From an uncultured virus (IMG/VR IMGVR_UViG_3300035698_029469) (lineage: Duplodnaviria > Heunggongvirae > Uroviricota > Caudoviricetes): a stretch of DNA of 20,000 nt. Within the stretch, counting starts at the first letter, position 1; the number at the start of each line of letters is the position of its first letter. The position numbers and the translations under genes were made by a program. Below the pieces are notes generated by a model that saw nothing but the letters and a program-made list of their open reading frames with translations, was not told the DNA's origin and did not search any database. Positions 1-13,977 of the stretch are shown here, piece after piece. The stretch is taken from the IMG/VR virus record IMGVR_UViG_3300035698_029469. One strand, written 5' to 3'.

Positions 1-63
1 GTTGAAATCGAGGATGAGTTGGGTGTAACACCCGAACTTCACCTTTTCGTTAAGGAGAGATGA
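1..63 (+). CDS. 3' end of a gene cut by the window edge (VEIEDELGVTPELHLFVKER*)
   Basis: Open frame from position 1 to TGA at 61-63; the stop lies inside the leader of the next gene, as elsewhere in this array. Confidence 0.5.
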   Translation, partial: VEIEDELGVTPELHLFVKER

Positions 64-66
64 AAA

Positions 67-426
67 ATGGATATAAACACAAATTATTTTGATGAAATAA
101 AAAAGGGTGGTATAAAAATGGAAAGTGTAAATGAGATAAGGAATAGATGGAAGCGAGAACTATCAGACATTACAATAGAAAATGTCGATAGTTTGATTGC
201 CGATGTAGATCGAGTCAAAGAACTATCTATAGATTTCCCGACTGAAAATATCGATATTCAGAAGCAAAGTGTCGATATAAAATTTTTATTGTTACATTTT
301 AAAATGTTATTGGAGTATTCCGATAACGCGAATCTTATTGCAACTTTAAATGAACAACACCTTTTCAATTTGAATTTTTATATGTCTGCCGCTGCAATAT
401 TGGAAATGCGGAGTTTTGATGATTAA
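67..426 (+). CDS. hypothetical protein, 119 aa (alternative start at 118)
   Basis: ORF preceded by the AAGGAGAGATGAAAAATG leader. Confidence 0.75.
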   Translation: MDINTNYFDEIKKGGIKMESVNEIRNRWKRELSDITIENVDSLIADVDRVKELSIDFPTENIDIQKQSVDIKFLLLHFKMLLEYSDNANLIATLNEQHLFNLNFYMSAAAILEMRSFDD

Positions 427-452
427 AGGGGATAAAAATGGAGGAATGAAAA

Positions 453-677
453 ATGGAAATGGAAAAAATGAGTTTTATATTAGGTGTGGGATTTACAATA
501 ATGATGGGAATAATAATTATGGCTTATCTTTATTATAGATGGCAGGAGAATTATTTTGTAAACCCGCCCGAAAATTTAACGAAAAAACAAGTTACAAAGG
601 GAACTGCTATTCTTTCCGTGCAATCTATTATAATTATTATTTGTATGTTTTTAATTCCGATAATAATTATCAGATAA
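453..677 (+). CDS. small membrane protein with 2 predicted TM segments
   Basis: GGAGG leader; hydrophobic stretches at both termini. Confidence 0.75.
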   Translation: MEMEKMSFILGVGFTIMMGIIIMAYLYYRWQENYFVNPPENLTKKQVTKGTAILSVQSIIIIICMFLIPIIIIR

Positions 678-691
678 TTTAAAAAGGAGGA

Positions 692-1177
692 ATGATTAAA
701 ATGCCGGAATTAGAAATGACTTGGATGGTAATATTATTATTTTTTATAATCGGAATAATAATTTTTATCGGATGTTTTTTATTTATTTTATTGAATAAAT
801 ATGTATTAGAGGAAGCAAATAAGGAATATCAAAAGGGCAATAAAGATGATTGTTATGGATTTATTATAATGCTTTTAATATTAGATTATTTAATTTTCGG
901 AGCTATATTTTGTATTGCGGATCATTATATTCGGGGTTATTATTCTTATACATGCGCAATTATAAGTTATACTATGATAGCTATTGTAGTTAATATTATG
1001 TTACTTGCTATGATTGCTTGTGGAATAGAAGATGTATCTGAAAAAGAAGAATCGTTAGGTATTATATTGGGTGTAGCAATATTAATTATTGTAAATTTAT
1101 ATTTAATATTAATATTGATAAATGCTTTGGATTATCTTGGAATGGATTTTCTGCCGATTGTAGTAATAAAGTGGTAA
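692..1177 (+). CDS. membrane protein with about 4 TM segments (start 692 or 701)
   Basis: AAGGAGG SD; four Ile/Leu-rich hydrophobic segments. Confidence 0.75.
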   Translation: MIKMPELEMTWMVILLFFIIGIIIFIGCFLFILLNKYVLEEANKEYQKGNKDDCYGFIIMLLILDYLIFGAIFCIADHYIRGYYSYTCAIISYTMIAIVVNIMLLAMIACGIEDVSEKEESLGIILGVAILIIVNLYLILILINALDYLGMDFLPIVVIKW

Positions 1178-1194
1178 ATAAGGAGGAATAAAAA

Positions 1195-1776
1195 ATGGAA
1201 GAATGTAATTGCGAAAAGTGTATGAGTTTGTGTTCAGGAATGCCGGGATGGTTTAAAGGCGGGCAGGCTATAAAAGCGGCCGAACATTTAAACTTATCAC
1301 TACTTGAATTTTTTGATCAATATCTTATGTTTGATAGTTGGGGTCAAAGCTTTATCCGGCATTGTTCGGCAGATATTGATGTCTTAATGCCACGAAATAA
1401 TAAATATAACTTATCAGATATAATGAAAAGACCGATGATGGAAAGGCGGCACGCTCGATGTAGATTATTGACGGATCACGGTTGTAAATTGCCATTAGAA
1501 CTTCGACCGTTTGAATGTGCCAACATATTTGGATGTAATTATCCGAATAAAAAAAATAGTCGAGAAATTCATATAGAAACTGCAAAATCTTGGGTTAAAA
1601 ATTATTTGGAAATTGAAGGAATATTGTCGATGAAGGGTTATACCCGCGAGAGACTTTATCGGGAAACAAACCAATATGAATATGATTTTGGTTTTAGCTC
1701 GAGAAATCAACATGATAATTGGGAAAATGATTGGGAATGGAAATATGTTCAAAATTTAAGTGATGAGGGATTCTAA
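1195..1776 (+). CDS. YkgJ/CxxCxxCC-like cysteine-cluster (Zn or Fe-S) protein
   Basis: N-terminal CxCxxCxxxC plus C-terminal CRLLTDHGCKL...RPFEC, matching the YkgJ pattern C-x-x-L-x(3-4)-G-C...R-P-x-x-C. Confidence 0.75.
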   Translation: MEECNCEKCMSLCSGMPGWFKGGQAIKAAEHLNLSLLEFFDQYLMFDSWGQSFIRHCSADIDVLMPRNNKYNLSDIMKRPMMERRHARCRLLTDHGCKLPLELRPFECANIFGCNYPNKKNSREIHIETAKSWVKNYLEIEGILSMKGYTRERLYRETNQYEYDFGFSSRNQHDNWENDWEWKYVQNLSDEGF

Positions 1777-1802
1777 AAAGGCCGAATAAGGAGAAATGAA
1801 AA

Positions 1803-1952
1803 ATGATTGTAAATGATTTGCTTAGATTGAGAGATGAGATAAAAGATTATATTTCAAATAGTGATAAAATAAAATATAATAGTTTTATAAGAATTGCGAA
1901 GGATGATTTGGATTTTGTAGAAAGTGAAATAGAAAGGGAAACGACAGATTAA
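1803..1952 (+). CDS. hypothetical 49-aa protein (MIVNDLLRLRDEIKDY...ERETTD), not in the ORF track
   Basis: Full leader AAGGAGAAATGAAAAATG at 1788-1805; fills the gap between flanking genes. Confidence 0.65.
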   Translation: MIVNDLLRLRDEIKDYISNSDKIKYNSFIRIAKDDLDFVESEIERETTD

Positions 1953-1981
1953 CCCGACCGAGTCAGAAGGAGGAATGAAAA

Positions 1982-2419
1982 ATAATTGTAAATGGAAAAC
2001 TCTTCAAACTCACAGATCGTTGGATTGGTTTACGAGTACGACGTAATGAGCAAAGAGGCCGATTTATGGGGTTTGATGAAAGCGGACGGCACATTGTTCA
2101 ATTTCAAACTTTTAAAACTGGAATTATAAACACAAATAATCTTAGCCTGGGATCACAAATAATGGATTTTCTTAATAATATGTATCGCGTCAGACGTGCT
2201 ATTACAACTGGTAATATATCAATATTAAATATATCGGGCGGTGATATTTTAAATATTGATAGAAATGTAATTAGATTAGAAGATATCGATGTTGCAGTAT
2301 TGAACGAATATTTTACTGAAGTAATGGAATTATATCGATTAATATTTGAAGTGTCAATTAAAATGACGGCGCCTTCAAATAAAATTGATTTGGGCCACCG
2401 GAAAAGTTGGTTCGATTAA
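1982..2419 (+). CDS. HRKSWF-family paralog 1; the homologous start position is ATA (first in-frame ATG at 2066)
   Basis: In-frame upstream extension IIVNGKLFKLTDRWIGL matches MIANGKQIELTDRWIGL of 3964..4431; C-terminus DLGHRKSWF. Confidence 0.7.
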   Translation: MIVNGKLFKLTDRWIGLRVRRNEQRGRFMGFDESGRHIVQFQTFKTGIINTNNLSLGSQIMDFLNNMYRVRRAITTGNISILNISGGDILNIDRNVIRLEDIDVAVLNEYFTEVMELYRLIFEVSIKMTAPSNKIDLGHRKSWFD

Positions 2420-2432
2420 GGAGGAATGAAAA

Positions 2433-2909
2433 ATGAGCGATTTGGATTTAATTATCACTACTACCAATTGCACAAGAGCCGAAGCCATTAACGCTTATAA
2501 AGTTTCGGGTCACAACTTTGTAAACACAATTGTTTATTTAGTTGATCATACTGAGTTGAAAAATCGAATAAAGGCGGAATTAACGGAAATATTAGATGAT
2601 TTTTATAAATTAATTTATCATAAAGATTGTAATGTTATGTCTATAAGTGATGATAGGATGTATAATAATGATAGTGGTCTTTATTTTTATAGAAATCATT
2701 CTGGATTTAGATTTTTTCAATCGCAATTATTTAAAGTGCATTTAGTAAATACTCGTTATGATGTAAATATGATAGACACACAAGAACTTGTAAGAATATC
2801 AACCGAAAAAGTAATTAATCTGTTAGTAGTGTCACGAATGACATTACCTAAGAATTGCGATAAAAAATTAATTATTAGATATATAAAACAATTTAGTCGG
2901 TTTATTTAG
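2433..2909 (+). CDS. protein with N-terminal NAC-alpha-like UBA domain; RFI-tail family paralog 1
   Basis: DLDLIITTTNCTRAEAINAYKVSGHNFVNTIVYL resembles the NAC-alpha/HYPK UBA pattern; C-terminal 40 aa similar to 3119..3469. Confidence 0.65.
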   Translation: MSDLDLIITTTNCTRAEAINAYKVSGHNFVNTIVYLVDHTELKNRIKAELTEILDDFYKLIYHKDCNVMSISDDRMYNNDSGLYFYRNHSGFRFFQSQLFKVHLVNTRYDVNMIDTQELVRISTEKVINLLVVSRMTLPKNCDKKLIIRYIKQFSRFI

Positions 2910-2925
2910 AAAGGAGAGTGAAAAA

Positions 2926-3114
2926 ATGAGTAAACGAATATATTTAATTATTGGTATTTTATATTTTTTATTATATGTAATATTAATAATACAATATAGT
3001 TTAAAGATAATAAATATTGATATGTTCACGATTGAAGTATCTTATCTAATGTTTATCGGCGTGGTTTTATATTGGTTGTTAAATCACCACCATCAAAGGT
3101 TAAAAGGAGAATGA
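2926..3114 (+). CDS. small 2-TM membrane protein
   Basis: Leader motif; two hydrophobic segments. Confidence 0.65.
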   Translation: MSKRIYLIIGILYFLLYVILIIQYSLKIINIDMFTIEVSYLMFIGVVLYWLLNHHHQRLKGE

Positions 3115-3118
3115 AAAA

Positions 3119-3469
3119 ATGAGTGAAACGATAACACGAATCAATCAGGCGACACTTGAAAGTTTTCCATTCCATTTAATTGACGATAGTCAATTACGTA
3201 GAGTGGATAAAGATTGGGGTAAAGATTGGGGAATCTTCATTCAGTTTCACAATGCTCCAAATCGAACCTTTATTTGGTTATTATCTGATAGTATTACTTT
3301 ATATTATAGGAAGATAATTTGTTGGTCACCTTTCGATTTTAAAGGTTGGGATTATAAAATAACCGAATCCGAATTGAATACCTTTTTGGCAATTGCCCGA
3401 TTATACGGCAAAAAGAAAACAGTAGCCGAAATTAAAGATGCTCTTAAAAAATTAGGTCGGTTTATTTAA
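3119..3469 (+). CDS. hypothetical protein; RFI-tail family paralog 2
   Basis: Leader motif; ends KITESELNTFLAIARL...LKKLGRFI. Confidence 0.75.
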   Translation: MSETITRINQATLESFPFHLIDDSQLRRVDKDWGKDWGIFIQFHNAPNRTFIWLLSDSITLYYRKIICWSPFDFKGWDYKITESELNTFLAIARLYGKKKTVAEIKDALKKLGRFI

Positions 3470-3483
3470 AGGGGGAATGAAAA

Positions 3484-3714
3484 ATGAAATCATTAGATGA
3501 ATTAGAAAATTTAGGATTTACATTATTTTCAATAGGTTTAATAGCTGCTATTGTGGGAACTATATTTACAATAATATATATGTGTTTAGGTGTTTTTAAT
3601 GAAATTGAAACTCAAAGCATGATACTTTCAATTATAGTTAGTTTTTTTATATGTTGGATAGGATTTACTATATTAAATTACGCCGATAAAATTCATGATG
3701 AAATAAATGAATAA
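3484..3714 (+). CDS. small 2-TM membrane protein
   Basis: Leader motif; two hydrophobic segments. Confidence 0.7.
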   Translation: MKSLDELENLGFTLFSIGLIAAIVGTIFTIIYMCLGVFNEIETQSMILSIIVSFFICWIGFTILNYADKIHDEINE

Positions 3715-3919
3715 GGTCGGTTTATTTAAACTAAAGCGACAAAATGGAAATGATAAGATGGAAAATAGAAATTATGTTTTTGTAAATATATCTCCTCCGG
3801 TTGATTATTTAATGCGCTACATATTTAGAAGTGTGGAGCGACCATATACATATAAGACAATAACTAAAATTTATGAAAATGGTTATCATAGTAAAGATGA
3901 AGAAATTATTCATTATTAA
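3707..3919 (+). CDS. hypothetical protein (true start possibly ATG 3758)
   Basis: ORF fills the gap; the 5' part carries the GTCGGTTTATTTA repeat and may be non-coding. Confidence 0.55.
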   Translation: MNKVGLFKLKRQNGNDKMENRNYVFVNISPPVDYLMRYIFRSVERPYTYKTITKIYENGYHSKDEEIIHY

Positions 3920-3963
3920 AACGACAAGGAGAAATGAAAAATGGAAAATAAAGAGATGATAAA

Positions 3964-4431
3964 ATGATAGCAAACGGAAAACAAATCGAACTTACAGATC
4001 GTTGGATCGGGTTACCTGTCCAAACTAAATTTATGTTTGTCGATAATGATGCTATTGAACAAGGGTTATTTAGTGGGCAATTTATATATTGTGATCATGA
4101 TAGATGCGTTATTGATTTTGGAGTTTATAAAAATAGACTTAGGAATTCTGATCAGATATTTTACGGTGTAAACATGCAAAGATTTGTCAAAGCTATGTAT
4201 TGGATTCGACGAAATTTCGAACAAAACGGGGCGGTTAATCCAAATTCTTTTGAATCAATCATACCAATTGTTGATGATCTCGAACCGATAGAGGTCGAAT
4301 TCCTCAATGAGTATTATGATGATTATATGATTATTTATAGAAAAATTTTTGTAGTTCCGTCCAAAATGATGGTTAATGCCGAAAAATACGACTTGGGTCA
4401 CCGGAAAAGTTGGTTTAAAGATGAGGTATGA
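3964..4431 (+). CDS. HRKSWF-family paralog 2
   Basis: N-terminal LTDRWIGL; C-terminal DLGHRKSWF. Confidence 0.8.
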   Translation: MIANGKQIELTDRWIGLPVQTKFMFVDNDAIEQGLFSGQFIYCDHDRCVIDFGVYKNRLRNSDQIFYGVNMQRFVKAMYWIRRNFEQNGAVNPNSFESIIPIVDDLEPIEVEFLNEYYDDYMIIYRKIFVVPSKMMVNAEKYDLGHRKSWFKDEV

Positions 4432-4435
4432 TAAA

Positions 4436-4819
4436 ATGATGTTAGGTAATAGTGATTATTTTTTAGATGATCGATTTTTGGGAATGCGTTTAAATGTTTC
4501 CGAAAATGTAACTTTTGGGCACGAAATGTTCAAAAACAAACCGACTTTTTATCAAACTGAAAATGAAAATTATATTAAAGTTATGATTTTAATGAAGGGA
4601 TCAAATCATAATAAAAGTCCTTTAATGTCAACTTTAGATTATATGGGACCCTTTTCAGTTAAGCGTAATTCTGTCTTTGCTTCATTAGAATTATTATTAG
4701 CGAGTGTAAATCCGAATTCTTATAATTTGGAACGATTAACAACACAAGAGAAATTATTTTATGATGAGTATTTATTTGATCACCGGAAAAGTTGGTTTGA
4801 AGATGAGGAATTAATTTAA
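4436..4819 (+). CDS. HRKSWF-family paralog 3 (start reassigned from 4376 to ATG 4436)
   Basis: GAGGT SD before 4436; MMLGNSDYFLDDRFLGM aligns with LTDRWIGL; shares VNPNS with paralog 2; ends DHRKSWF. Confidence 0.75.
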   Translation: MMLGNSDYFLDDRFLGMRLNVSENVTFGHEMFKNKPTFYQTENENYIKVMILMKGSNHNKSPLMSTLDYMGPFSVKRNSVFASLELLLASVNPNSYNLERLTTQEKLFYDEYLFDHRKSWFEDEELI

Positions 4820-4842
4820 ATTACAAGGAGAGATGAAAAATA

Positions 4843-5055
4843 ATGGGAATATTAAAAAAACTTATGCCGTTTCGGGTTCCATATAGTAATGGCCCGTGTT
4901 GGTATAAAGGAAAATGGAACGGTTATGACAAATTAGAATTATTGAATGGACATAAAGTATATAGACATTGGCGAAGTTTATCTATAAATTTATTAGATAT
5001 AATTTTAATTCCAATTTATATAATAATAAAGAGAAAAAGGAGAGTAATAAAATGA
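4843..5055 (+). CDS. small basic protein with a C-terminal hydrophobic segment
   Basis: Leader motif at 4825; LLDIILIPIYIII followed by KRKRR. Confidence 0.65.
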   Translation: MGILKKLMPFRVPYSNGPCWYKGKWNGYDKLELLNGHKVYRHWRSLSINLLDIILIPIYIIIKRKRRVIK

Positions 5056-5399: not shown

Positions 5400-5753
5400 A
5401 TGAATAAAAGAACAAGATTAGTGAATCTTACACCGCATGAAATAACTATATATCGCGGAAGCAAGATAATCCAAATTATAGAGCCAAGCGGCCAAAAAGC
5501 CTTTATTACCACATCTTACAGAAAGTTGAGAACTGTTAACGGCATAGACGTTGTCGAAACAGAATGGGGGGAACCGAAAGGAATCCCGCCGCCGGCACCG
5601 AACACTTTTTATATTGTTTCGACGGTGGTGTTGCAGGGTAGCGACCGTGAGGATCTTATAGCGCCGGATACTGGTAAAACGGCTGTTAAAGCTAACGGTA
5701 AGATTATAGGAATAACCAGGTTTCAGGTGTGGGCTTGGGCACCTGGGAAATAA
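5400..5753 (+). CDS. NLTPH-motif protein, candidate Crn4-like ring nuclease / anti-CRISPR
   Basis: Motifs NLTPH, G.P.P, YIVS, R.DL.AP, G.IIG; 117 aa, beta-rich. The family assignment is from recall of the motif, not from a search. Confidence 0.55.
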   Translation: MNKRTRLVNLTPHEITIYRGSKIIQIIEPSGQKAFITTSYRKLRTVNGIDVVETEWGEPKGIPPPAPNTFYIVSTVVLQGSDREDLIAPDTGKTAVKANGKIIGITRFQVWAWAPGK

Positions 5754-5763
5754 AACCCAAACA

Positions 5764-5777
5764 TTCTTTATTTTTTC
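5764..5777 (+). terminator. oligo-T tract, candidate archaeal-type terminator of the accessory array
   Basis: TTCTTTATTTTTTC just after the last + strand gene, at the junction with the convergent tRNA cluster. Confidence 0.4.
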
Positions 5778-5782
5778 ATTAA

Positions 5783-5855
5783 TGCCCATAGTCGGTCTCG
5801 AACCGACGATCAACAGCTTAGGAAGCTGATGCCTTATCCACTAGACTATACGGGC
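5783..5855 (-). tRNA. trnR: tRNA-Arg(CCT)
   Basis: GCCCGTA-TA-GTCT-AGTGGATA-AGGC-A-TCAGC-TTCCTAA-GCTGT-TGATC-GTCGG-TTCGAGA-CCGAC-TATGGGC-A; complete cloverleaf, A20 Arg identity base, no encoded CCA. Confidence 0.92.
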
Positions 5856-5861
5856 TTAAAG

Positions 5862-5935
5862 TGCTCTTAGAGGGACTTGAACCCTCGCCGACCCGGTTAG
5901 AAGCCGGGCATTCTATCCAACTGAATTATAAGAGC
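5862..5935 (-). tRNA. trnR: tRNA-Arg(TCT)
   Basis: GCTCTTA-TA-ATTC-AGTTGGATA-GAAT-G-CCCGG-CTTCTAA-CCGGG-TCGGC-GAGGG-TTCAAGT-CCCTC-TAAGAGC-A; all stems fully paired. Confidence 0.95.
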
Positions 5936-5945
5936 TTGATTTGGA

Positions 5946-6018
5946 AGCCCACGGTCGGACTTGAACCGACAATTACGGATTCCGAAGACCCGAGCCTTAT
6001 CCTTTTGGCCACGTGGGC
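5946..6018 (-). tRNA. trnR: tRNA-Arg(TCG)
   Basis: GCCCACG-TG-GCCA-AAAGGATA-AGGC-T-CGGGT-CTTCGGA-ATCCG-TAATT-GTCGG-TTCAAGT-CCGAC-CGTGGGC-T, followed by TCCA. Confidence 0.9.
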
Positions 6019-6024
6019 TTATGA

Positions 6025-6110
6025 TGGTGGGCGGGAGCGGATTCGAACCGCTGTCTCCTCAGTAGTTTCCTAGGACTGACTTGAGGCGTCTGCCTCTAAC
6101 CTACCCGCTC
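6025..6110 (-). ncRNA. tRNA-like RNA A (86 nt) with a 20-nt anticodon loop; possibly an intron-containing tRNA of undetermined identity
   Basis: Acceptor GAGCGGG/CCCGCCC plus ACCA; T arm AGCGG-TTCGAAT-CCGCT; stem CCTCA/TGAGG encloses AGTCAGTCCTAGGAAACTAC. Confidence 0.75.
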
Positions 6111-6122
6111 ATAGACCTGGAT

Positions 6123-6250
6123 TGGTGGTAACTGCCGGATTTAAACCGACGTCATCGGGCGGCTTACACGTTCGAGCGCAATTAACGCTCCTCCCGACCC
6201 ATTGCGGGATGTGCCCTGTCCCTATGTAATCTCTGCTATACTAGGTTACC
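6123..6250 (-). ncRNA. tRNA-like RNA B (128 nt) with a multi-hairpin domain in place of the anticodon arm
   Basis: Acceptor GGTAACC/AGTTACC plus ACCA; T arm GTCGG-TTTAAAT-CCGGC; internal stems GGGC/GCCC, ACAT/GTGT, TCCCG/CGGGA and GAGCG/CGCTC. Confidence 0.7.
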
Positions 6251-6415
6251 ATTGTATTTTTTTAACAGTGTATTGATTCTTAAACAGCAGGACTCGATTC
6301 TATCATCCATATATTTCGTTTCGGCACGAGAACACTTTATGCCGTATATTATAACTAAGATAGGCCCCACTATAGCTATTATAATGCACAAAACATCGAT
6401 GTATAATGGTATCAT
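6236..6415 (-). CDS. 59-aa single-TM micro-protein inside the tRNA cluster, not in the ORF track
   Basis: AAAGGAGA SD then ATG; MIPLYIDVLCIIIAIVGPILVIIYGIKCSRAETKYMDDRIESCCLRINTLLKKYNGNLV*. Confidence 0.7.
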   Translation of the reverse strand: MIPLYIDVLCIIIAIVGPILVIIYGIKCSRAETKYMDDRIESCCLRINTLLKKYNGNLV

Positions 6416-6452
6416 TGTGTTTTCTCCTTTCTATTTTATGCTACGTCGAAAT

Positions 6453-6613
6453 TGGTGGCAACCGGTGGATTCGAACCACCGTTGATTGGATATCTCCTTA
6501 CTCTGTTTATTCGCGCGCGCCACATAAGCTGAGGGGATCATGAGTCCAACGTCTCAGAGGGCTTCTTACCCGGTTACCCGAGCGGTATGCCAACCTGGCT
6601 AGACTAGATTGCC
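6453..6613 (-). tRNA. tRNA(CAT), elongator Met or Ile2, with two introns (37/38 at 6492-6538; D-loop at about 6556-6591)
   Basis: Removing the 47-nt and 36-nt inserts gives GGCAATC-TA-GTCT-AGCCAGGTTG-AGAC-G-TTGGA-CTCATGA-TCCAA-TCAAC-GGTGG-TTCGAAT-CCACC-GGTTGCC-A-CCA (78 nt). Confidence 0.85.
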
Positions 6614-6620
6614 TTTAATT

Positions 6621-6697
6621 TGGTGTCAGCGAGTGGAGTTTAACCACTGCAGCCCGGGCAGACTGTACGCCTTGCTTTTGCACTCAGCCACACTGAC
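6621..6697 (-). ncRNA. tRNA-like RNA C (77 nt) with an enlarged D loop, a shifted anticodon arm and essentially no variable loop
   Basis: Acceptor GTCAGTG/CGCTGAC plus ACCA; T arm AGTGG-TTAAACT-CCACT; hairpin CAGTC-TGCCCG-GGCTG. Confidence 0.7.
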
Positions 6698-6706
6698 AAC
6701 AGTTAA

Positions 6707-6790
6707 CGTCTGTTCCCGCCTCACGGCAAGACGAGACGGATTACCCTTTTTTAATCTCCAACGGTAATCTGGAGAAGCCGCTTTCGGGGC
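6707..6790 (-). ncRNA. structured RNA: GAAA hairpin, H-type pseudoknot and GUGA-capped hairpin
   Basis: TCTCCA/TGGAGA stem whose loop GATTACC is complementary to downstream GGTAATC across TTAAAAAAG; CGTCT/AGACG and CTTGCC-GTGA-GGCGGG. GNRA loops and G-U pairs fit only the minus strand. Confidence 0.65.
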
Positions 6791-6811
6791 GCGCACCATA
6801 CCCTGTTTTCC

Positions 6812-6837
6812 CTTTAAAACGTCTATTTTTAAAGCTT
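6812..6837 (-). promoter_or_regulatory. candidate TATA-box promoter of the RNA operon
   Basis: AAGCTTTAAAAA (6837-6826) and TTTTAAAG (6819-6812) lie about 20-40 nt upstream of the structured RNA. Confidence 0.45.
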
Positions 6838-6893
6838 AGAGTGGTAATGCCTTTAAGTAGATCCTTCTATCTCTTATCTGTGCGGCCGGGTAT

Positions 6894-8729
6894 TTAATAA
6901 TCCCAAGTAGTTGCAACCGCAAAGCCCGAAAAATCATCATAATCATCATTTGTGAAATTTATAACTTTGGGTTCTTGTTGTGCTCTACCGCCGGGTGAGT
7001 TGCCCTGTCTATAAGCTATAGCGGCAACCGGTTCATGTCCCGGGCTATCGTCCCGCATTTGTCTTAATGCCCAAGCTCCCATAGCCAGGGTAATAACCCG
7101 ATCATCACGGCCGTTTTTGGGATATTTAATATTGCCGCTTTCCGTGAATTCTTGTCGGAATTCGCGCAGCTCGTTTTCGAGGGAATAGAGTTCATGATCT
7201 ATAGTTCCTTTAGTCTTTCGATGTTCGGGATTATAATAGGGAATTCGGATTTCGTTATTCTCGAAGAGGTGCTTGAGATTAGAAATAACCAGCGGTTTAT
7301 TTTGAGCTGTAAAGTTTAGGCCAAGATCGCCTTTGGTGCGCCAAAAATGCGGAGGTTCATATCCAAACATTTGATCGCAGGCTTTTTTAAGGCCTTTCAC
7401 AAATATTCGGCCGACATTTTTACCGTCAAATACTACGGCCGTCGGACGGAAAGCTTCAATTAATCTTAAAGCTTGGGGTAACAATACTTCTTCGTAGTCA
7501 GCATGTAGATAACTTTCCTGCCAAACAAGCGAAGTGCATTCTCTTACGATCATTGTCCCATCTTTATCGCTGTTTACGATTGTCGGGCGTTTTGTTATAA
7601 ATGAAAATACCGTTCGATCGTGGGCTTGACCAAGGTCCCCGGCAAATACAAGAGGATATTTTCCTTTTGGTTCGGGGTCTAAAAATGGATAGCCGGCCGA
7701 TTTAGTCTCGGCTTCTTTTGTAAAATGCGAGACCGAATCCAATAATTGATCTGCAATAAAAACTCCGCCTTTTGCCGGCTCTTGAATTAAATCTTTACCG
7801 TAGAGGCCGGCAATTGCTCTAACAGAATCGGTTTCGATAAATGGATTAACAATGGGGACCCAACCGTTTACATCGCGGGCACGGAGAATATATTCGTTCT
7901 TAAATACGCTATCGGCATCGGAAACAAATTCTCCTTGAAGTTCTTCTTTAATCGAACGCGGACTGATTCTGTGATCTTCCATTTTTTGAAGAAATAATTC
8001 TGTATTCATCCACGGTACTGCCCATTTACATTGATTTTCGATTAAATTACCGTGGTTATCGAAGAAGAGATCATCTTTAATATTATATTTTTTATAGTAA
8101 TTTTCGTTGGTTTCGCTTATCCATTGCTCATAAAACCAGCCGCTCATTCCGAACGGTGTAGAACCTGCAATAACACGGGAAAAATCAAAATTAGGTCTTA
8201 TTGTTGGTAAAACGGGACCAACAATGAATTCCGTGGGTAATTGTGCAACTTCATCTATAAAACCAATTTCAAAACTCCGGCCACGGCAAGCGTCGCTTAC
8301 AGGAAAAGCCCAAATGTCAGAACGATTTTTAAGTTTAAAATGATCTTTGGCAATATTTTTTGGAACTAAAGTATGAAAATCGCTGTTCCTGATAAATTGT
8401 TCAATTATTCCGACTGATCTTGTTGCTTCATTATAACCCACCGAAAAATAGCCGATTAAAATACCTGGCCGTGTGATCATAAGAGCCGCTGCTATCACGT
8501 GCATAAGTGTAGATTTAGCATAACCTCTGGGAGCTTTTAAAAGTAATGTTCTTTTGCCTTCATAGACACCATCTTCAGGAGAACCGTATTGAAAGAGCCG
8601 ACAAGCTTCTTTTTGCCATTCGAGAAGTCTAAATGGCCGAAGTCCTTTTTCTTCTTTAAAGAAAGTTTCAATGAAGGTTACGAGATCCCGCATTAGATGA
8701 AGGTCTGCCATGCTAACGTTTATTCTCAT
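6894..8729 (-). CDS. terL: terminase large subunit
   Basis: Adenine-binding WQ, Walker A APRGYAKST, Walker B GFIDEVA, coupling motif GSTP, RNase H-like AGDLG..DRT and DDRVITLAM. Confidence 0.95.
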   Translation of the reverse strand: MRINVSMADLHLMRDLVTFIETFFKEEKGLRPFRLLEWQKEACRLFQYGSPEDGVYEGKRTLLLKAPRGYAKSTLMHVIAAALMITRPGILIGYFSVGYNEATRSVGIIEQFIRNSDFHTLVPKNIAKDHFKLKNRSDIWAFPVSDACRGRSFEIGFIDEVAQLPTEFIVGPVLPTIRPNFDFSRVIAGSTPFGMSGWFYEQWISETNENYYKKYNIKDDLFFDNHGNLIENQCKWAVPWMNTELFLQKMEDHRISPRSIKEELQGEFVSDADSVFKNEYILRARDVNGWVPIVNPFIETDSVRAIAGLYGKDLIQEPAKGGVFIADQLLDSVSHFTKEAETKSAGYPFLDPEPKGKYPLVFAGDLGQAHDRTVFSFITKRPTIVNSDKDGTMIVRECTSLVWQESYLHADYEEVLLPQALRLIEAFRPTAVVFDGKNVGRIFVKGLKKACDQMFGYEPPHFWRTKGDLGLNFTAQNKPLVISNLKHLFENNEIRIPYYNPEHRKTKGTIDHELYSLENELREFRQEFTESGNIKYPKNGRDDRVITLAMGAWALRQMRDDSPGHEPVAAIAYRQGNSPGGRAQQEPKVINFTNDDYDDFSGFAVATTWDY

Positions 8730-8733
8730 TTAA

Positions 8734-9069
8734 TCAATCTTCCAGTTCTTCGCCGATAATAACACAGCCTGCACACCCGTGAGTATCCCAAATTTTCATG
8801 TTAAATTCTCGATTATTTCCGCCTTTAAATCTACAATGTTCTCCAGTGTAAGCACAACCTAAACAACGCTCAGTTTGTCCGTTTTCGCCGTTCCGTTCCT
8901 TCATTTGTTCACCGACATTGTAGTGTTCCTTTCCCCAATCTTCATCAACCGTATTGCACAGATGGCAATAGCCGGCAAACATCCGCTTGCCTTCGTCAAA
9001 ACAATCGCAATTTGGACACATACAATCACCACAAGCTTTACACCATTGTTTTCCGCATTCTATATCCAT
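8734..9069 (-). CDS. Cys-rich putative Zn-binding protein, paralog 2
   Basis: MDIECGKQWCKACGDCMCPNC...YCHLC...CLGC...C...CAGC. Confidence 0.8.
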   Translation of the reverse strand: MDIECGKQWCKACGDCMCPNCDCFDEGKRMFAGYCHLCNTVDEDWGKEHYNVGEQMKERNGENGQTERCLGCAYTGEHCRFKGGNNREFNMKIWDTHGCAGCVIIGEELED

Positions 9070-9072
9070 CAA

Positions 9073-9249
9073 TTATGACTCCCATCGATTCTTAGTTCCA
9101 TCTAAGTAACCAGGATATTCTAATTCCATTTCTTGGCAAAAGTCACAATAATGATGTGAATTTGATGATTTTACTCGAATCCAATTACATTCTTTACATA
9201 TACAATCACCACAACCCCAACAGAATAGTTTTCCGCATTCTATATCCAT
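9073..9249 (-). CDS. 58-aa Cys-rich putative Zn-binding protein, paralog 1, not in the ORF track
   Basis: AGGAG SD; MDIECGKLFCWGCGDCICKECNWIRVKSSNSHHYCDFCQEMELEYPGYLDGTKNRWES*; DNA repeat 9021-9069 vs 9201-9249. Confidence 0.8.
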   Translation of the reverse strand: MDIECGKLFCWGCGDCICKECNWIRVKSSNSHHYCDFCQEMELEYPGYLDGTKNRWES

Positions 9250-9347
9250 TTTTAATTGATCTCCTGAATTATATAGTAAAAATGGTAAATATAAATTTAT
9301 TTGGATTTTGGAAAGATTTTAAATATTCGGGCGCGTAGATTTAAAGT
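9250..9347. promoter_or_regulatory. divergent archaeal-type promoter region
   Basis: + strand GAAAGAT-TTTAAATA (9311-9325) about 30 nt before ATG 9348 with no SD, consistent with a leaderless transcript; - strand AAATAAA-TTTATATT (9302-9288) about 30 nt before the SD of 9249. Confidence 0.6.
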
Positions 9348-9620
9348 ATGAGTGACGAATTAACGCTCGTCGAGGCTATTGTATTTTCGGATGGTGTCGG
9401 CGATAAAACATTAACAGTCAGAGAAATTGTCAAACGTATGTTAAAAACGGATGATGGATATTGGTATTTGAATCGTTTAACCGGTATAAATGGACGAATG
9501 AATGGTGTGCGCAGAATTTTAAATAGTTTGGTAACTAAGGGTTTTGTAAAAAGGGTAAACCTTCGTTATGTTAGCGGCGGGAATATTCCCAGAATCGGGT
9601 ATCGGATATGGAGTGATTAA
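9348..9620 (+). CDS. winged helix-turn-helix DNA-binding protein
   Basis: LTVREIVKRM...VRRILNSLVTKGFVKRV followed by a beta-wing ending GYRI. Confidence 0.75.
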   Translation: MSDELTLVEAIVFSDGVGDKTLTVREIVKRMLKTDDGYWYLNRLTGINGRMNGVRRILNSLVTKGFVKRVNLRYVSGGNIPRIGYRIWSD

Positions 9621-9621
9621 A

Positions 9622-10416
9622 ATGCCGTTTGAAAAATATCCGTCTCGGCCGAAGTTTACAGTGGAAGAGGCCGAAGAATTTTTAAGCAAACGTAACGAAT
9701 TCATCTACGGCGATCTTAGCGGAAAGCCCAACACAATATTTATTGGCGCTGGGCCAAAATGGCGTAAACGACCACCTTGTAAGAGTTGTAACCCTCTTTT
9801 TTTCGGCAGAATTCGGGAACTGGGCGATATGGATTTAGATTCTAAAAAAATACGAAAACAGTTACAATCGGATTTACCCGAAATATTAAAACGATTTCCG
9901 GAAGAAAGTGGAATTACTATCCCAACACCGCAGAGTATTGGCCGGCATATGCGGGATCATGGTTATGATGAACCGGTTCCCGAGGTTAAATCGGCTACTA
10001 TTGCTCGAAAAGTGTGTAATGCGGCCTTGTCGCCTTCAATAGAAACTACCGATGCGGAAACAGAAGGCGAGGACGTATCAATTGATGGTTTGAATTCTGT
10101 TCAAGAGTTATTTAAGACGGCGCAGGCTTTATGCGAACGGGAAGAATATATATTGACCCGGCATTTTGAAGAGGAACTAACACAGGATGATATAAGGGTA
10201 ATTTCGGAGAAACGCCAGGCTATCAAGGCCTACGAGCTTGGAAGAGTAGAATACCAGGATAACGAGAAACAGAAGCAAGTTGCGGTTTTAAATGCTATTG
10301 CAGTTAATATGCAAAAAATGGAATATGAGATGGAAGAAGGAAGCCGGGTAAGACAGCTAAATGAAGCAATTCTTAAATTGGTTGAAATGGAAGAAGAAAG
10401 CGAAAATAATAATTAG
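9622..10416 (+). CDS. putative terminase small subunit / Zn-binding HTH-like protein (start reassigned to ATG 9622)
   Basis: GGAGTGA SD; CKSC...SIGRHMRDH followed by an acidic helical C-terminus; lies directly before the portal. The function is inferred from position. Confidence 0.5.
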   Translation: MPFEKYPSRPKFTVEEAEEFLSKRNEFIYGDLSGKPNTIFIGAGPKWRKRPPCKSCNPLFFGRIRELGDMDLDSKKIRKQLQSDLPEILKRFPEESGITIPTPQSIGRHMRDHGYDEPVPEVKSATIARKVCNAALSPSIETTDAETEGEDVSIDGLNSVQELFKTAQALCEREEYILTRHFEEELTQDDIRVISEKRQAIKAYELGRVEYQDNEKQKQVAVLNAIAVNMQKMEYEMEEGSRVRQLNEAILKLVEMEEESENNN

Positions 10417-10472
10417 TAAACATTTAAATTTATTATAAAAACTAAATTAGTTAGATTACTGGAGATTACATC

Positions 10473-12188
10473 ATGGACGATATAACATTAAATAATACTT
10501 CTGAAATTACAGAGCAAGCTTCAAATGGTTCTATTGATCTCATGGAATTTTTATGTTGTTCCTACGTGAATCAAAACGAAGGAGCGGGAAATTTCGCTCC
10601 GTCGGGAAGTCCGCCGGCACTTTTCGCTGAGGACGTAAACTCTTATTTTGACGGAAATCTTACGGTGCCCAAGCTTGATGAATTGCGCTATTGGATGACG
10701 CCGGCAACCGCCACGAATAACTGGTTTCTATTTTCAAAGGAATCAACTTGCCGAAACATCGCAGAAACGATTATCTCTATGGTTAAGGGATCCGGGGCTA
10801 ATGTTACTGTTTACAACGATGATGGAATTGATGATGAACTAACTGAAGTAGCTACAAATTGGTATAGGAATATTGCCGGTGTTGGACAGTCTTTTAATAA
10901 TTATGTGCTTAAATGGTTTATTATGGATAATTTAATATTCGGGCAATCTCTTATGTATAAATTCCGACCCGATAAAACAAGCCCGCAGTATGATAAAGAT
11001 GATCTTTATCTCAGAAAGTTAGATCCGAGAGAAACTGTTCGACACGTTCACGACCGCCAAGGTTGGGAGAAATATATCCAATATCCACGAGTTCAGGCGG
11101 GATTTGGCATTTATATAAAACCCCGGCGTAGTAATAAAGCACAGCCGAAATATACCTGGCTTGATCCCCCAACAACTTACGGGGAGTTTATGAAGTGGGT
11201 CCCCGGGTTTTCGACTCTTTATGATGTTTATTCGCACGGGGCACGAGTTCGGGATAAACCGCTTATTATTGAAGGTAAAAAGGTTATCAGATCCAATTTT
11301 TGGGTATGGGCGCCTTTTAACTCTGTAATTGACTACGTGGTAACCAAACTACGTTGTATTTTTTATATTCAGAAAGTTGTGGAAAAACATGCATTCCCTT
11401 TACCACTTATAAAGGTCCCCAGAAATGCACGATGGGATAGCAATCCCGCTAAATATATAAAAAAGGTTAAAAATGCGGCCCGCATGGGAGCACAAATGAA
11501 AACCGGCGATGGATTAGCTGTTCAAGGCCCGCAACATAATGAAGAGGGAAAAGTCATAGATCCTGGCTGGGAAGTAGAAATACTTGACACGAAGTCAGCG
11601 ATCATAGATTTTGAAAAAATAATTACTATTTTGAACAACGGAATAGCACACGGGTTGATGATGAATCCTTCGGTAATAGACTCCGATTCTAGCCAGGGAA
11701 AAATGGCCACGGGCTATATGGGCTGGCAATCAATGGTTGTAGTTATTGAGAGTATCCGAAGTGCGATTCAGGATGTAATGATTCCGGTTACACAGGAATA
11801 CATTAAGTTTAAGACCGGAAGGACTGTAGAAGAAAAGAATGTTCAACTTAGATGGCAACGAATAAGCGAGAACGATTCGGCAATAATCGGAAGCCAAATT
11901 GTGCAATTTTTACAGGCGGGTATTATAGATATAGAAGAAGCCCGGGAACAGGCAAATATTATCGGTTGGAATTTAGAAGGAAAGTCTATTGAAGATATTA
12001 TGGACTTTTATAAAGAATATATGGAGATAATACAGCCGCCGGGTAAATCGGAAGGTTCTGTAGATTCGGATCCTGGTAATACCGGCGATAGAAGTGGCGG
12101 ATACCAAAATAATCCGCAGGACCGGGTTAAAAACGTTAATGTGACCAGAAAAGGCGGTGGCGGTGGAACTGGAAGGGAGGGTACTTAA
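10473..12188 (+). CDS. portal protein
   Basis: 571 aa; DNLIFGQSLMYK...LRKLDP, KHAFPLPLIKV, IAHGLMMNP and GIIDIEEARE are portal-like segments; disordered tail; upstream of head genes. Confidence 0.85.
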   Translation: MDDITLNNTSEITEQASNGSIDLMEFLCCSYVNQNEGAGNFAPSGSPPALFAEDVNSYFDGNLTVPKLDELRYWMTPATATNNWFLFSKESTCRNIAETIISMVKGSGANVTVYNDDGIDDELTEVATNWYRNIAGVGQSFNNYVLKWFIMDNLIFGQSLMYKFRPDKTSPQYDKDDLYLRKLDPRETVRHVHDRQGWEKYIQYPRVQAGFGIYIKPRRSNKAQPKYTWLDPPTTYGEFMKWVPGFSTLYDVYSHGARVRDKPLIIEGKKVIRSNFWVWAPFNSVIDYVVTKLRCIFYIQKVVEKHAFPLPLIKVPRNARWDSNPAKYIKKVKNAARMGAQMKTGDGLAVQGPQHNEEGKVIDPGWEVEILDTKSAIIDFEKIITILNNGIAHGLMMNPSVIDSDSSQGKMATGYMGWQSMVVVIESIRSAIQDVMIPVTQEYIKFKTGRTVEEKNVQLRWQRISENDSAIIGSQIVQFLQAGIIDIEEAREQANIIGWNLEGKSIEDIMDFYKEYMEIIQPPGKSEGSVDSDPGNTGDRSGGYQNNPQDRVKNVNVTRKGGGGGTGREGT

Positions 12189-12190
12189 AT

Positions 12191-12361
12191 ATGGATAAAT
12201 TTAGTGATTGGGAAATGAAACGTATTTATATTTCACCAATAGGTTCTGATGGAAAGGGTGATTCGTTTTCTAATGGAGTTAAAAATTTAAAGGAAGCATT
12301 TAATAATTCAAATGAAAAGACAATAATAATGATTCCGCCACATCCATCACAGAGGTTATAA
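12191..12361 (+). CDS. 56-aa ORF resembling the N-cap of the beta-helix modules (possible gene fragment)
   Basis: GGAGGG SD; RIYISPIGSDGKGDSFSNGVKNLKEAF...TIIMIPP. Confidence 0.5.
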   Translation: MDKFSDWEMKRIYISPIGSDGKGDSFSNGVKNLKEAFNNSNEKTIIMIPPHPSQRL

Positions 12362-12363
12362 AT

Positions 12364-12522
12364 ATGATGTACGTGGAACAATTTAACGAACAACGCGATA
12401 CAATTGATGAAATTTTAATTTTACCTAATAACGAATATGAAATTATATCTAGTTATTTACCTATAAATCATTATCAAATTATGTTGGCTAAGGAATATGA
12501 TAGACAAAAGGACGAGAAGTAA
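12364..12522 (+). CDS. hypothetical 52-aa protein
   Basis: GAGGT SD; tiles between neighbouring genes. Confidence 0.5.
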   Translation: MMYVEQFNEQRDTIDEILILPNNEYEIISSYLPINHYQIMLAKEYDRQKDEK

Positions 12523-12523
12523 A

Positions 12524-12706
12524 ATGTTAAATATAGAAATATCAAGTGGAAATAAAACTCCAACTTTTTGGCAATATATTTATTATCCAGATCCTAATGG
12601 ACCAAAAACATATAATTGGGCTAATATTCCAAAAACTTTAAAAGAATTTACTATTCTTATGGAGAAATATAAATGGGGCAACGATATTATACGACAACGT
12701 CAATAG
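12524..12706 (+). CDS. hypothetical protein (start 12524 or 12497)
   Basis: In the ORF track; ATG directly follows the previous stop. Confidence 0.55.
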   Translation: MLNIEISSGNKTPTFWQYIYYPDPNGPKTYNWANIPKTLKEFTILMEKYKWGNDIIRQRQ

Positions 12707-12840
12707 AGCAAGACGTATTAGAATCAATTACATCGACCAAACGATATGAACTAGAACATAGAATTCTAGAATTAGAAGCTGAACTTAAGAAAGCAAGGCA
12801 AATGTTACAACAATTAAAAACAGCGGAGAGAGCTAAATGA
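12673..12840 (+). CDS. 55-aa coiled-coil protein
   Basis: GGAG SD; ELEHRILELEAELKKARQMLQQLK heptads; ATGA overlap with the next gene. Confidence 0.55.
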   Translation: MGQRYYTTTSIEQDVLESITSTKRYELEHRILELEAELKKARQMLQQLKTAERAK

Positions 12841-13028
12841 AATGCGATCTATGTGAAAATGAACTTATTTTATCGGTTCTTGTTGATTGTCCTAAGTTGC
12901 CGGAAGATCGTACTTGTGTTTGTCTATGCGAAGAATGTGGGGGAAAATATGCTAATACTCCAAGCATTCTTAGTAATATGATAAAAATAAGAATAGGTAT
13001 TAATGAAAATCGGGTGCTTTTAATATGA
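12837..13028 (+). CDS. small zinc-ribbon protein
   Basis: CDLC and CEEC pairs; GGAG SD. Confidence 0.65.
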   Translation: MKCDLCENELILSVLVDCPKLPEDRTCVCLCEECGGKYANTPSILSNMIKIRIGINENRVLLI

Positions 13029-13136
13029 GACGGCCAAAACGTGGGAGTTTTCAATCATTTCCTGATTATCTTTATTCGGAAAATGAAACACAAACCGAAT
13101 TATTTAGTTTAATTAATGAAAGGGATATGACAGAAT

Positions 13137-13604: not shown

Positions 13605-13960
13605 TGAAAACAGTTTCCTTGATTTTAGATGATAGAATTGGTAAAGGATATTATCATGAGGCGGTAAAAACATTAATAAATAAAGAAGTAGTTTTGAATC
13701 ATATATCGCCGATTGATGATCCATCGGCATATTTAGGACGTATTTTACATGCTTATATTGATAATGATGAATCTATAAAGTGTAATATTGATTTTTGTGA
13801 TAAAAAAAATATATATTGTAATTATATTGAAAATGGAAAGTTTTGGCCGGCTTTCACTATTTTTTATGTTAGTTGTGGAGAATCATCTAAAATGTTTATT
13901 CGTGAAATTATATTTGATCATATTAGTTTATGTATCAATTTAGAAAACATTAAAAATTAA
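13601..13960 (+). CDS. degenerate paralog of the prohead protease domain
   Basis: NKEVVLNHISPIDDPSAYLGRI vs NQEVLLSHVSPNDNVNSYMGRV; KFWPAFTIF vs KFWKGVSIG; DHISLCIN vs REVSLARN. Confidence 0.7.
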   Translation: MMKTVSLILDDRIGKGYYHEAVKTLINKEVVLNHISPIDDPSAYLGRILHAYIDNDESIKCNIDFCDKKNIYCNYIENGKFWPAFTIFYVSCGESSKMFIREIIFDHISLCINLENIKN

Positions 13961-13977
13961 ACTAAAGGAGATAAAAT

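Follow-up and report, generated by a model that had tools for sequence, protein, structure and literature searches.

Stable tRNA-shaped phage RNAs, multi-intron transfer RNA (tRNA) genes of archaea and interrupted tRNA genes of tailed viruses are the described systems closest to the locus treated here, a 161-nucleotide (nt) gene derived from a tRNA with a CAU anticodon and carrying two inserts (the candidate gene, at positions 6453-6613 on the minus strand), which lies in a 20,000-nt stretch of DNA (the window, here and below) from the uncultured virus IMGVR_UViG_3300035698_029469, a member of the Caudoviricetes. Phage T4 reportedly carries, within its tRNA array, the species 1 and 2 RNAs, stable and tRNA-shaped but non-decoding. 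RNAs of this type are said to have CCA-ended tRNA-like bodies, to stand among true tRNAs and to replace loops with folded domains, a description that fits el3, a paralog of the candidate gene; the candidate itself is unlike them in that its anticodon loop can be restored exactly. Multi-intron tRNAs of archaea were reportedly described by Sugahara in 2007 and 2008. With Thermoproteales and other archaea our gene shares the concept of several pre-tRNA introns excised independently of one another at bulge-helix-bulge (BHB) motifs of relaxed hBH or HBh′ form, relaxed motifs requiring (alpha-beta)2 or epsilon2 EndA (PMC4090602, PMC4033280). It differs from them in its stems, in which 12 of 21 pairs are G-C, and in a D-loop insert that fails the motif criteria.

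Asgard archaea carry multi-intron tRNA genes in which, as in the candidate, intervening sequences occur at 37/38 and in the D arm, the latter without a canonical BHB and overlooked by standard finders. In three Asgard genomes 92-95% of the tRNA genes are interrupted (Valentin-Alvarado et al. 2024, PMC11291895), and canonical BHB motifs accompany 35-58% of Asgard intervening sequences against 5-7% in null models; those in the D arm are often missed, have a canonical BHB in 33% of cases, and none is reported as shown to be spliced (bioRxiv 10.64898/2026.10.13.758758). The Asgard genes are cell-borne whereas ours is virus-borne, the link being a terminase relative from an Asgard virus; our inserts (36 and 47 nt) are longer than the Asgard median of 22-23 nt, even a relaxed motif is missing from the D insert, splicing would give a product with G37 and G21, and the likeness is one of description. 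Among viruses, the haloarchaeal HGTV-1 is, like ours, a tailed virus with a tRNA array in which one gene is interrupted (PMC13532342), but it is an unrelated, high-GC virus whose single intron was annotated by tRNAscan-SE, whereas the candidate has two inserts and is missed by Rfam and by default ARAGORN. For the Lak megaphages, whose host is Prevotella, “enigmatic introns” are described in tRNA genes (Devoto et al. 2019, PMC6784885), again oversized tRNA genes of a prokaryote virus with inserts of no known intron class or splicing route; these phages differ in their bacterial hosts, their size (~540 kb) and their single anticodon-loop inserts, and are likened here by description only. A doubly interrupted viral tRNA was not found in the literature on intron-bearing tRNAs of archaeal and Asgard viruses, supplements lying outside the scope of that search. 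The evidence assembled below supports a virus-encoded gene of the tRNA(CAT) type in which the D loop and the canonical 37/38 position each hold one insert.

A tRNA(CAU)-derived gene and its paralog

The stretch 6453-6613 is a real tRNA(CAU)-derived gene with two inserts, and its parts are as follows.

6453-6613, minus strand: whole gene, tRNA(CAU)-derived, 161 nt including the encoded ACCA (read from the sequence; ARAGORN at a lowered threshold gives the same ends)
6607-6613, minus strand: acceptor stem, 5′ strand GGCAATC, with partner GGTTGCC at 6457-6463 (7 of 7 pair, one as G-U)
6601-6604, minus strand: D stem, 5′ strand GTCT, with partner AGAC at 6551-6554 (4 of 4 Watson-Crick)
6556-6591, minus strand: D-loop insert, 36 nt, after position 20a, a GUAA-capped hairpin whose removal restores the D arm
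6545-6549, minus strand: anticodon stem, 5′ strand TTGGA, with partner TCCAA at 6486-6490 (5 of 5 Watson-Crick)
6539-6544, minus strand: anticodon-loop positions 32-37, CTCATG, with the anticodon CAT at 6540-6542 and G at 37
6492-6538, minus strand: anticodon insert, 47 nt, at 37/38, whose removal restores the cloverleaf
6464-6480, minus strand: T arm, GGTGG TTCGAAT CCACC (from the ARAGORN drawing and the fold)
6453-6456, minus strand: discriminator A73 and encoded CCA (read from the sequence)

Deletion of both inserts leaves 78 nt that default ARAGORN draws as tRNA-Met(CAT), with stems of 7 bp (acceptor), 4 bp (D), 5 bp (anticodon) and 5 bp (T), the T loop TTCGAAT and the ACCA end. All 21 stem positions pair in this insert-free form (20 Watson-Crick pairs plus U6-G67), 12 of them as G-C; position 38 is A6491, and the core bases U8, A14, G15/C48, G18 and G19, U33, the UUCGAAU T loop and A73 are in place. 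The original prediction, made from the letters alone, had proposed that removing a 47-nt insert at 37/38 and a 36-nt insert in the D loop gives a clean 78-nt tRNA; this holds, as does every string that it quoted from the minus strand, with the refinement that both boundaries slide. The D insert can be shifted by −1 to +1 along a TG repeat and the anticodon insert by 0 to +4, that is, from 37/38 through 41/42, along an ATCC repeat present at its start and just after it, so that 37/38 is one of five equivalent placements. The 78-nt form deviates from the tRNA core twice, with G21 for A21 and G37 for A37. tRNAs that read ANN codons carry A37, and G37 beside a CAU anticodon is unusual; the virus's own tRNA-Arg genes keep the usual rule (A37 for UCU and CCU, G37 for UCG).

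An ARAGORN call says little by itself, because the program calls a tRNA in 196,778 of 1,380,943 variants carrying one or two deletions. Since a sound acceptor stem and T arm suffice to make it permissive, a separate, strict test was used: the D stem had to pair at 4/4 and the anticodon stem, anchored to the T arm, at 5/5, and the loop had to show Y32-U33-R37. Of 20,000 dinucleotide shuffles applied to the 126 nt that separate the acceptor 5′ strand from the T stem, 35 yielded a two-insert cloverleaf of this strictness, from which we conclude that the gene genuinely derives from a tRNA and carries two insertions. In its uncut state it yields no tRNA match on 6453-6613 among the 13 Rfam matches at E <= 10 in 5700-6950 and is not among the default ARAGORN calls in the window, and in intron mode ARAGORN gives parses that disagree, one as Phe-aaa (69-nt intron) and one as Ser-gga (86-nt intron). 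Further copies of the inserts were not found within the window beyond chance words of 7-11 nt. A group I intron, for which a ribozyme core of ~200 nt or more matching Intron_gpI would be expected, was rejected on account of the insert lengths of only 47 and 36 nt and of the lack of any Rfam intron match at E <= 10, and a 15-nt complementarity between the D insert and the anticodon arm of tRNA-Arg(UCU) was set aside, two other pairs being equal to it in length and identity.

Comparison of repeats identified a paralog ~200 nt downstream of the candidate.

6123-6250, minus strand: el3, tRNA-shaped paralog with encoded ACCA

The D arm of el3 is intact, and UAGGG/CCCGA forms an anticodon stem at the canonical place, with 59 nt that fold as two hairpins in place of the 7-nt anticodon loop; the first 15 nt of el3 overlap the end of an open reading frame (ORF) at 6236-6415. 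Over the 21 cloverleaf pairs, el3 and the candidate have 12 in common, 5 changed on both sides and still paired (3-70, 12-23, 31-39, 50-64 and 51-63), 1 changed on one side and 3 broken in el3, and the elbow pair 19-56 is G-C in the candidate and A-U in el3. These five compensatory changes imply that the tRNA body is under selection in the candidate and in el3 alike. A loop with U33 is restored in el3 by no single deletion, whereas the loop of the candidate is recoverable; ARAGORN called 16,858 of 646,231 deletion variants of el3, mostly as Ile(AAU) on an internal hairpin. At least one of the two paralogs is not a decoder, and the compensated body together with the absence in el3 of a loop recoverable by one deletion argues that the family is kept as a shape and not necessarily as a decoder.

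Splice motifs and folding of the precursor

The original prediction went on to propose nested BHB motifs in the D insert, three stacked helix-and-bulge units in the anticodon insert and, in consequence, up to four or five sequential splicing events in a single viral tRNA. We scored the inserts by the rules of bioRxiv 10.64898/2026.10.13.758758 (section 4.8), under which the central helix has four pairs, joining the 4 exon nt before the 5′ bulge with the 4 intron nt before the 3′ bulge, the bulges have 3 nt, the outer helices have at least 2 pairs, and “relaxed” denotes three central pairs. The D insert falls into no BHB class, not even the relaxed one, at shifts from −3 to +3, with at most 2 of 4 central pairs, and it remains without a class after removal of its inner 17 nt or of the anticodon insert. 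The anticodon insert, placed at 37/38, scores as relaxed, with 3 of 4 central pairs (CUC/GAG), an exon helix of 6 and an intron helix of 1; its 3′ bulge, AUA, adjoins the 6-pair exon helix, which is the anticodon stem, and in the cloverleaf-constrained fold its 5′ site lies inside a 7-nt single-stranded stretch. The canonical 4-bp central helix is thus lacking at both inserts of the candidate, and no canonical BHB is present at the two el3 inserts implied by the ARAGORN parse, which brings the count to none of the four array inserts.

The innermost proposed motif lies within the D insert.

6565-6581, minus strand: inner 17 nt, TACC[GCT]CGG-GTAA-CCG-GGTA[AGA], formally of class HBh′ (4/4 central pairs, intron helix 3)

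Its formal class survives scrutiny; its significance does not, as it is one of 48 canonical-class BHB candidates in the 161 nt, against 37.1 +/- 8.0 in 1000 shuffles (10.9% of which reach 48), and RNAfold leaves it unbulged. Excision of these 17 nt leaves 19 nt that score no motif at all 7 shifts, so inner removal neither creates nor improves an outer motif. The proposed outer motif, AGG/CCT, is a 3-bp central helix and as such not a motif, reaching 2/4 pairs at 4-bp spacing, and the three stacked anticodon units dissolve into one that is relaxed (3/4), one with 2/4 and a third with 4/4 central pairs that lacks an outer helix. The longest nested chain is 3 in the anticodon insert (shuffle mean 2.53; 52.7% of shuffles at least equal) and 2 in the D insert (mean 1.99; 99.2% at least equal). 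Cut-site pairs with at least 3/4 central pairs in the anticodon insert do exceed expectation, at 103 against 80.1, a number that 1.4% of shuffles reach; the excess is probably due to the GCGCGCGC run of that insert. Relaxed or unanchored BHB motifs are common by chance and are not to be taken as evidence of splicing.

Folding leads to the same place. The cloverleaf-constrained precursor has an energy of −49.6 kcal/mol in RNAfold, against −50.4 kcal/mol for the minimum free energy structure, and in it the D insert stands as a separate hairpin with a GUAA cap that takes up the inner motif's “bulge”: the bulged inner helix is not formed and slides into a 6-bp GNRA hairpin. With motif counts and chain lengths at the level of shuffles and an unbulged fold, nested or sequential splicing is without support. 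The D insert folds at −13.0 kcal/mol (z = −1.85; 4.8% of shuffles are equally stable), and the anticodon insert folds no better than 68% of its shuffles (z = +0.5). In the predicted precursor fold G18 and G19 are paired with the 3′ end of the D insert and would not be free for the elbow.

The virus, its tRNA array and its host

The 20-kb window belongs to a tailed virus, with genes for a terminase, a portal, a major capsid protein and a neck protein. Its DNA is present in contigs of runs labelled salt lake metagenome (8 runs listed, none of them recorded as RNA), and contigs of 4 DNA runs are letter-identical to the window wherever they overlap it; contigs from DNA runs span each of the D-insert junctions and the entire 47-nt insert, and no insert-less joint occurs among them. 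G+C content steps sharply from 28-32% in the small-ORF region (1-5000) to 33-45% in the coding sequence to the right of the array, which holds the structural module (7000-20000), and it peaks at 47% where the array lies (6001-7000). The array consists of tRNA and tRNA-like genes in a row, on the minus strand and downstream of the terminase gene. In order of the minus strand the array comprises a leader, el1, the candidate, ORF 6236-6415, el3, a Leu(CAA)-like gene and tRNA-Arg genes TCG, TCT and CCT; its elements beyond those already listed, and further genes of the window, are given below.

6698-6800, minus strand: structured G+C-rich leader of ~100 nt with strong hairpins, one with a GUGA tetraloop
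6621-6697, minus strand: el1, aberrant and tRNA-like, 77 nt, with an ACCA end, separated from the candidate downstream by a 7-nt spacer
6236-6415: 59-codon ORF with a good ribosome-binding site, between the candidate and el3
6025-6110, minus strand: Leu(CAA)-like aberrant gene, called by default ARAGORN
5783-6110, minus strand: downstream end of the array, the Leu(CAA)-like gene followed by canonical tRNA-Arg TCG, TCT and CCT
5400-5753, plus strand: small ORF, PHROG 30542 (E 7e-20), the sole small ORF with clear relatives
6894-8729, minus strand: large terminase, PHROG 2 (E 2e-29)
10473-12188: portal, structure-level match to Portal_Mu clusters
16666-17655: major capsid protein, Phage_cap_E (E 6e-6) and PHROG 29 (E 1e-12)

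In gathering mode Rfam finds 3 matches in the window, all tRNA-Arg (58-68 bits), and default ARAGORN finds 4 genes, the three Arg genes and the Leu-like one. The element el1 has a T loop TTAAACT, an anticodon loop TACAGTC and a D loop without GG; it is called by ARAGORN at a lowered threshold only and gives no Rfam match at E <= 10. A 57-codon ORF without a ribosome-binding site (6626-6799, within 6621-6800, minus strand) overlaps it. The Leu(CAA)-like gene has a perfect CTCAAGT loop, but its D arm has 3 bp and a 4-nt loop, its anticodon stem two mismatches and its acceptor stem an A2-C71 mismatch, and it escapes the tRNA model of Rfam at E <= 10. An encoded ACCA closes each of the four aberrant units, whereas CCA is absent from two of the three canonical Arg genes; the remaining one (TCG) has TTCCA after its end.

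The host is to be sought, by a slight lean of the evidence, among archaea. The terminase has 125 representative matches, the best at 43% identity, and among the 20 terminase clusters looked up one bears organism names, those of the Helarchaeota virus Nidhogg and a Promethearchaeota metagenome-assembled genome (MAG). The alignment with that Asgard-virus protein runs over the full length (23% identity, 106 bits, E 2e-28), whereas none of 17 records in the phage collection covers at least 80%, and bacterial phage terminases align with no more than the N-terminal 23-41% of the query protein. Immediately upstream of the terminase gene, at the expected place of a small terminase subunit, lie two adjacent paralogous Cys-rich small proteins (8734-9249, minus strand), which start with M(M)DIECGK, contain several CxxC and match no family. 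Ribosome-binding sites of the AAGGAGG/AAGGAG type precede about two thirds of the ORFs, and such strong Shine-Dalgarno usage fits many bacteria and many archaea alike. A strong site, GGAGGAATGAAAA, stands directly before ATA 1985, from which an ORF listed from ATG 2066 (1985-2419, plus strand) is open in frame; a small ORF at 1804 begins with the near-identical ATGATTGTAAATG behind the same kind of site, and the 1985 region may have an ATA or ATT start or may be a paralog that lost its start codon. Homologs of ORF 5400-5753 are mostly from Bacillus and Paenibacillus phages, with others from Thermobifida and Pararheinheimera phages and a Methanofastidiosa virus. The G+C content of that ORF, 44%, is well above that of its neighbours.

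Promoter-like sites are not enriched in the window (81 against 72 +/- 9), nor are terminator-like sites (16 against 13.4 +/- 4). The only perfect promoter-like site of the 81, TTGACA-17-TATAAT (12/12; 2329-2357, minus strand), is antisense inside a plus-strand ORF. At 9318-9350 (plus strand) TTTTAAATATT lies ~25 nt before the ATG of ORF 9348-9620, which lacks a ribosome-binding site and in which there are faint hints of a winged helix (MarR/TrmB, E 0.02); this arrangement is reminiscent of an archaeal TATA box ahead of a leaderless first gene. Behind the array stand oligo-T tracts that have no hairpins. With pI 5.4 overall, D+E 13.1% and K+R 10.8%, the proteome lacks an acidic character, which argues against a salt-in halophile as host without settling the domain, and since 12 of 21 stem pairs are G-C, a hyperthermophile such as a member of the Thermoproteales is unlikely. 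The suggestion of a Thermoproteales-like host, part of the original prediction, is unsupported in view of the stems, the salt-lake runs and the Asgard archaeal virus as source of the only named terminase relative. EndA or RtcB domains were found neither in 36 ORFs of the window searched with Pfam nor in 24 searched with NCBIfam, and two protein-atlas look-ups returned “viruses” and mixed taxa only. AUA makes up 212 of 555 Ile codons in the virus, and its Arg tRNAs match the two commonest Arg codons, AGA (106) and CGA (73) of 319.

The virus is without a close relative in the collections searched. There was no match in the phage collection, by DNA or by capsid protein, no relative in IMG/VR by protein and pattern scans, none in metagenome scans, and neither the terminase nor the capsid protein gave a match in word-based protein searches. 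A 20-residue IMG/VR match was spurious, and a pattern match in the species genomes, in a Pirellulaceae MAG, lies within apparent coding sequence with no tRNA and was taken as chance.

Retention of the inserts or splicing

We posit, at a probability of roughly 0.4, that the candidate is a tRNA-shaped small RNA that retains its inserts. The gene, a tRNA(CAU) derivative that belongs to the array of a novel tailed virus, was interrupted by two DNA-level insertions, one of 36 nt in its D loop and the other of 47 nt in its anticodon loop; the array would be transcribed, most likely from a promoter near 6825-6835; and each unit would be excised by way of its intact tRNA body, with acceptor stem, T arm, D stem, elbow and encoded CCA, tRNA end-processing enzymes being known to recognise features of the tRNA body. 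The candidate could then persist as a 161-nt RNA with both inserts as extra arms, like el3, and would not be a normal decoder; it might be used as a stable decoy, as a scaffold RNA or as processing punctuation around the small ORF 6236-6415. We prefer this to two-step splicing because none of the four array inserts has a canonical motif and the A37 rule is broken, and because el3 is maintained without an anticodon and an archaeal host is no more than slightly favoured. Further observations are counted in its favour, namely that the cloverleaf is exactly restored, far beyond chance, that the tRNA body of el3 is kept by compensatory change, that the precursor reaches the cloverleaf at almost no energy cost with the D insert as a separate hairpin, and that ACCA is found on all aberrant units and is absent from two of three Arg genes. 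Inserts alone do not imply archaeal splicing, because the bacterial Lak megaphages, as described, also carry unexplained tRNA inserts. A wider and more tentative version, to which we give rather less credence, is a small family of paralogs, L-shaped RNAs with CCA ends (6453-6613 and 6123-6250, perhaps joined by 6621-6697 and 6025-6110), in which the body is a scaffold for processing and stability and the folded inserts differ. In such a family the anticodon might even be displayed unspliced: owing to the ATCC repeat the 161-nt RNA could close a 3-bp GGA/UCC stem under an intact 7-nt CUCAUGA loop, and an RNA so folded could present its anticodon without splicing, the rest of the 47 nt being a side arm at 41/42.

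Several points weigh against retention. We know of no function for an RNA of this kind. The anticodon loop (C32, U33, CAU, a purine at 37, A38) and its stem are perfectly restorable, which would be needless in an RNA kept for its shape only, unless the insertions are recent. The 47-nt insert is compatible with 37/38, the canonical intron site of archaeal and eukaryal tRNAs, with AUA as a 3-nt bulge beside the anticodon stem and 3/4 central pairs. The terminase aligns over its full length with that of an Asgard archaeal virus, and Asgard tRNA genes contain 2.2 intervening sequences on average, with many located in the D arm and lacking a canonical motif (bioRxiv 10.64898/2026.10.13.758758). A CAU tRNA would suit the virus, given AUA at 212 of 555 Ile codons and Arg tRNAs that match its top codons. 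Finally, relatives in which conserved inserts might be seen were not found in the collections searched.

For these reasons (the restorable loop, the 37/38-compatible site and the Asgard-virus terminase) splicing is kept as a serious rival, doubtful as we hold it to be. In an archaeal-type intron tRNA, an (alpha-beta)2 or epsilon2 EndA would cut the 47-nt intron at its relaxed hBH motif and then, independently, the D insert, RtcB would join the exons, and the 78-nt tRNA would read AUG, or AUA after modification of C34. The exact restoration of the cloverleaf speaks for such a route, and the placement at 37/38, with the anticodon stem as exon helix, the AUA bulge and the CUC/GAG helix at 3/4, agrees with it; yet the motif at the anticodon insert is at chance level, the D insert offers not even a relaxed one at shifts −3 to +3, and the product would carry the unusual G37 and G21. 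Asgard hosts, to which the named terminase relatives (a Helarchaeota virus and a Promethearchaeota MAG) point, have heavily interrupted tRNA genes whose D-arm insertions are, as far as described, often missed and have a canonical BHB in 33%; the haloarchaeal virus HGTV-1 provides one recorded case of an intron-bearing tRNA; codon usage offers the spliced tRNA a use; and the TATA-like box before the 9348 start and the hairpin-less oligo-T tracts after the array are weak archaeal hints. Set against this are the absence of a canonical BHB at all four array inserts, the aberrant state of the neighbouring units, an unproven host domain, with AAGGAGG sites before about two thirds of the ORFs and one ORF whose homologs are mostly from Bacillus and Paenibacillus phages, and the failure to find EndA or RtcB genes in the window.

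If the anticodon insert alone were spliced, the D-loop hairpin would stay in the mature tRNA as an arm from the variable pocket (20a/21). That the D insert is an autonomous GNRA-capped hairpin (z = −1.85) without a splice motif, that a BHB-like context is found at the anticodon insert alone, and that 20a and 20b are a naturally length-variable site of the D loop would all suit this arrangement, which we nonetheless consider improbable: we know of no natural tRNA with an extra arm at 20a/21, the predicted pairing of G18 and G19 with the 3′ end of the insert would oppose it, and the problem of G37 persists. About as improbable, or marginally less so, is decay, in which a viral tRNA gene was inactivated by two insertions and its RNA has no function. 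The short direct repeats (ATCC, TG) flanking both inserts are what a DNA-level insertion would leave, G37 and G21 could be the first decay mutations, and three adjacent tRNA-like units are aberrant; but all 21 stem positions pair and the tertiary-core bases are intact except A21, the five compensatory pair changes in el3 speak for selection on shape, and the sequence is identical in contigs of 4 runs. Least credible by far are the 4-5 sequential excisions of the nested scheme (inner 17 nt, outer D intron, three stacked anticodon units). The HBh′ form of the inner motif, the 4/4 central pairs of the third anticodon unit and the 103 cut-site pairs against 80.1 in shuffles (reached by 1.4%) lend it what attraction it has, while the 19 nt left after inner removal show no motif at 7 shifts, the outer motif and the second unit have only 2/4 central pairs at 4-bp spacing, 48 candidates against 37.1 +/- 8.0 and the chain lengths match shuffles, RNAfold does not form the bulged inner helix, and homologs were not found in the collections searched.

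The locus would gain a different meaning in each case. If the candidate is not spliced, the preferred reading of retained inserts would make it a further case of an unexplained and growing class of virus-encoded tRNA-shaped RNAs, here with two paralogs whose bodies have evolved by compensatory change. If it is spliced, this would be, within the literature searched, the first description of a prokaryote virus whose tRNA gene is doubly interrupted, with one of the introns in the D loop, and an orphan virus of salt lakes would be tied to hosts with broad-specificity tRNA splicing, such as the Asgard archaea.

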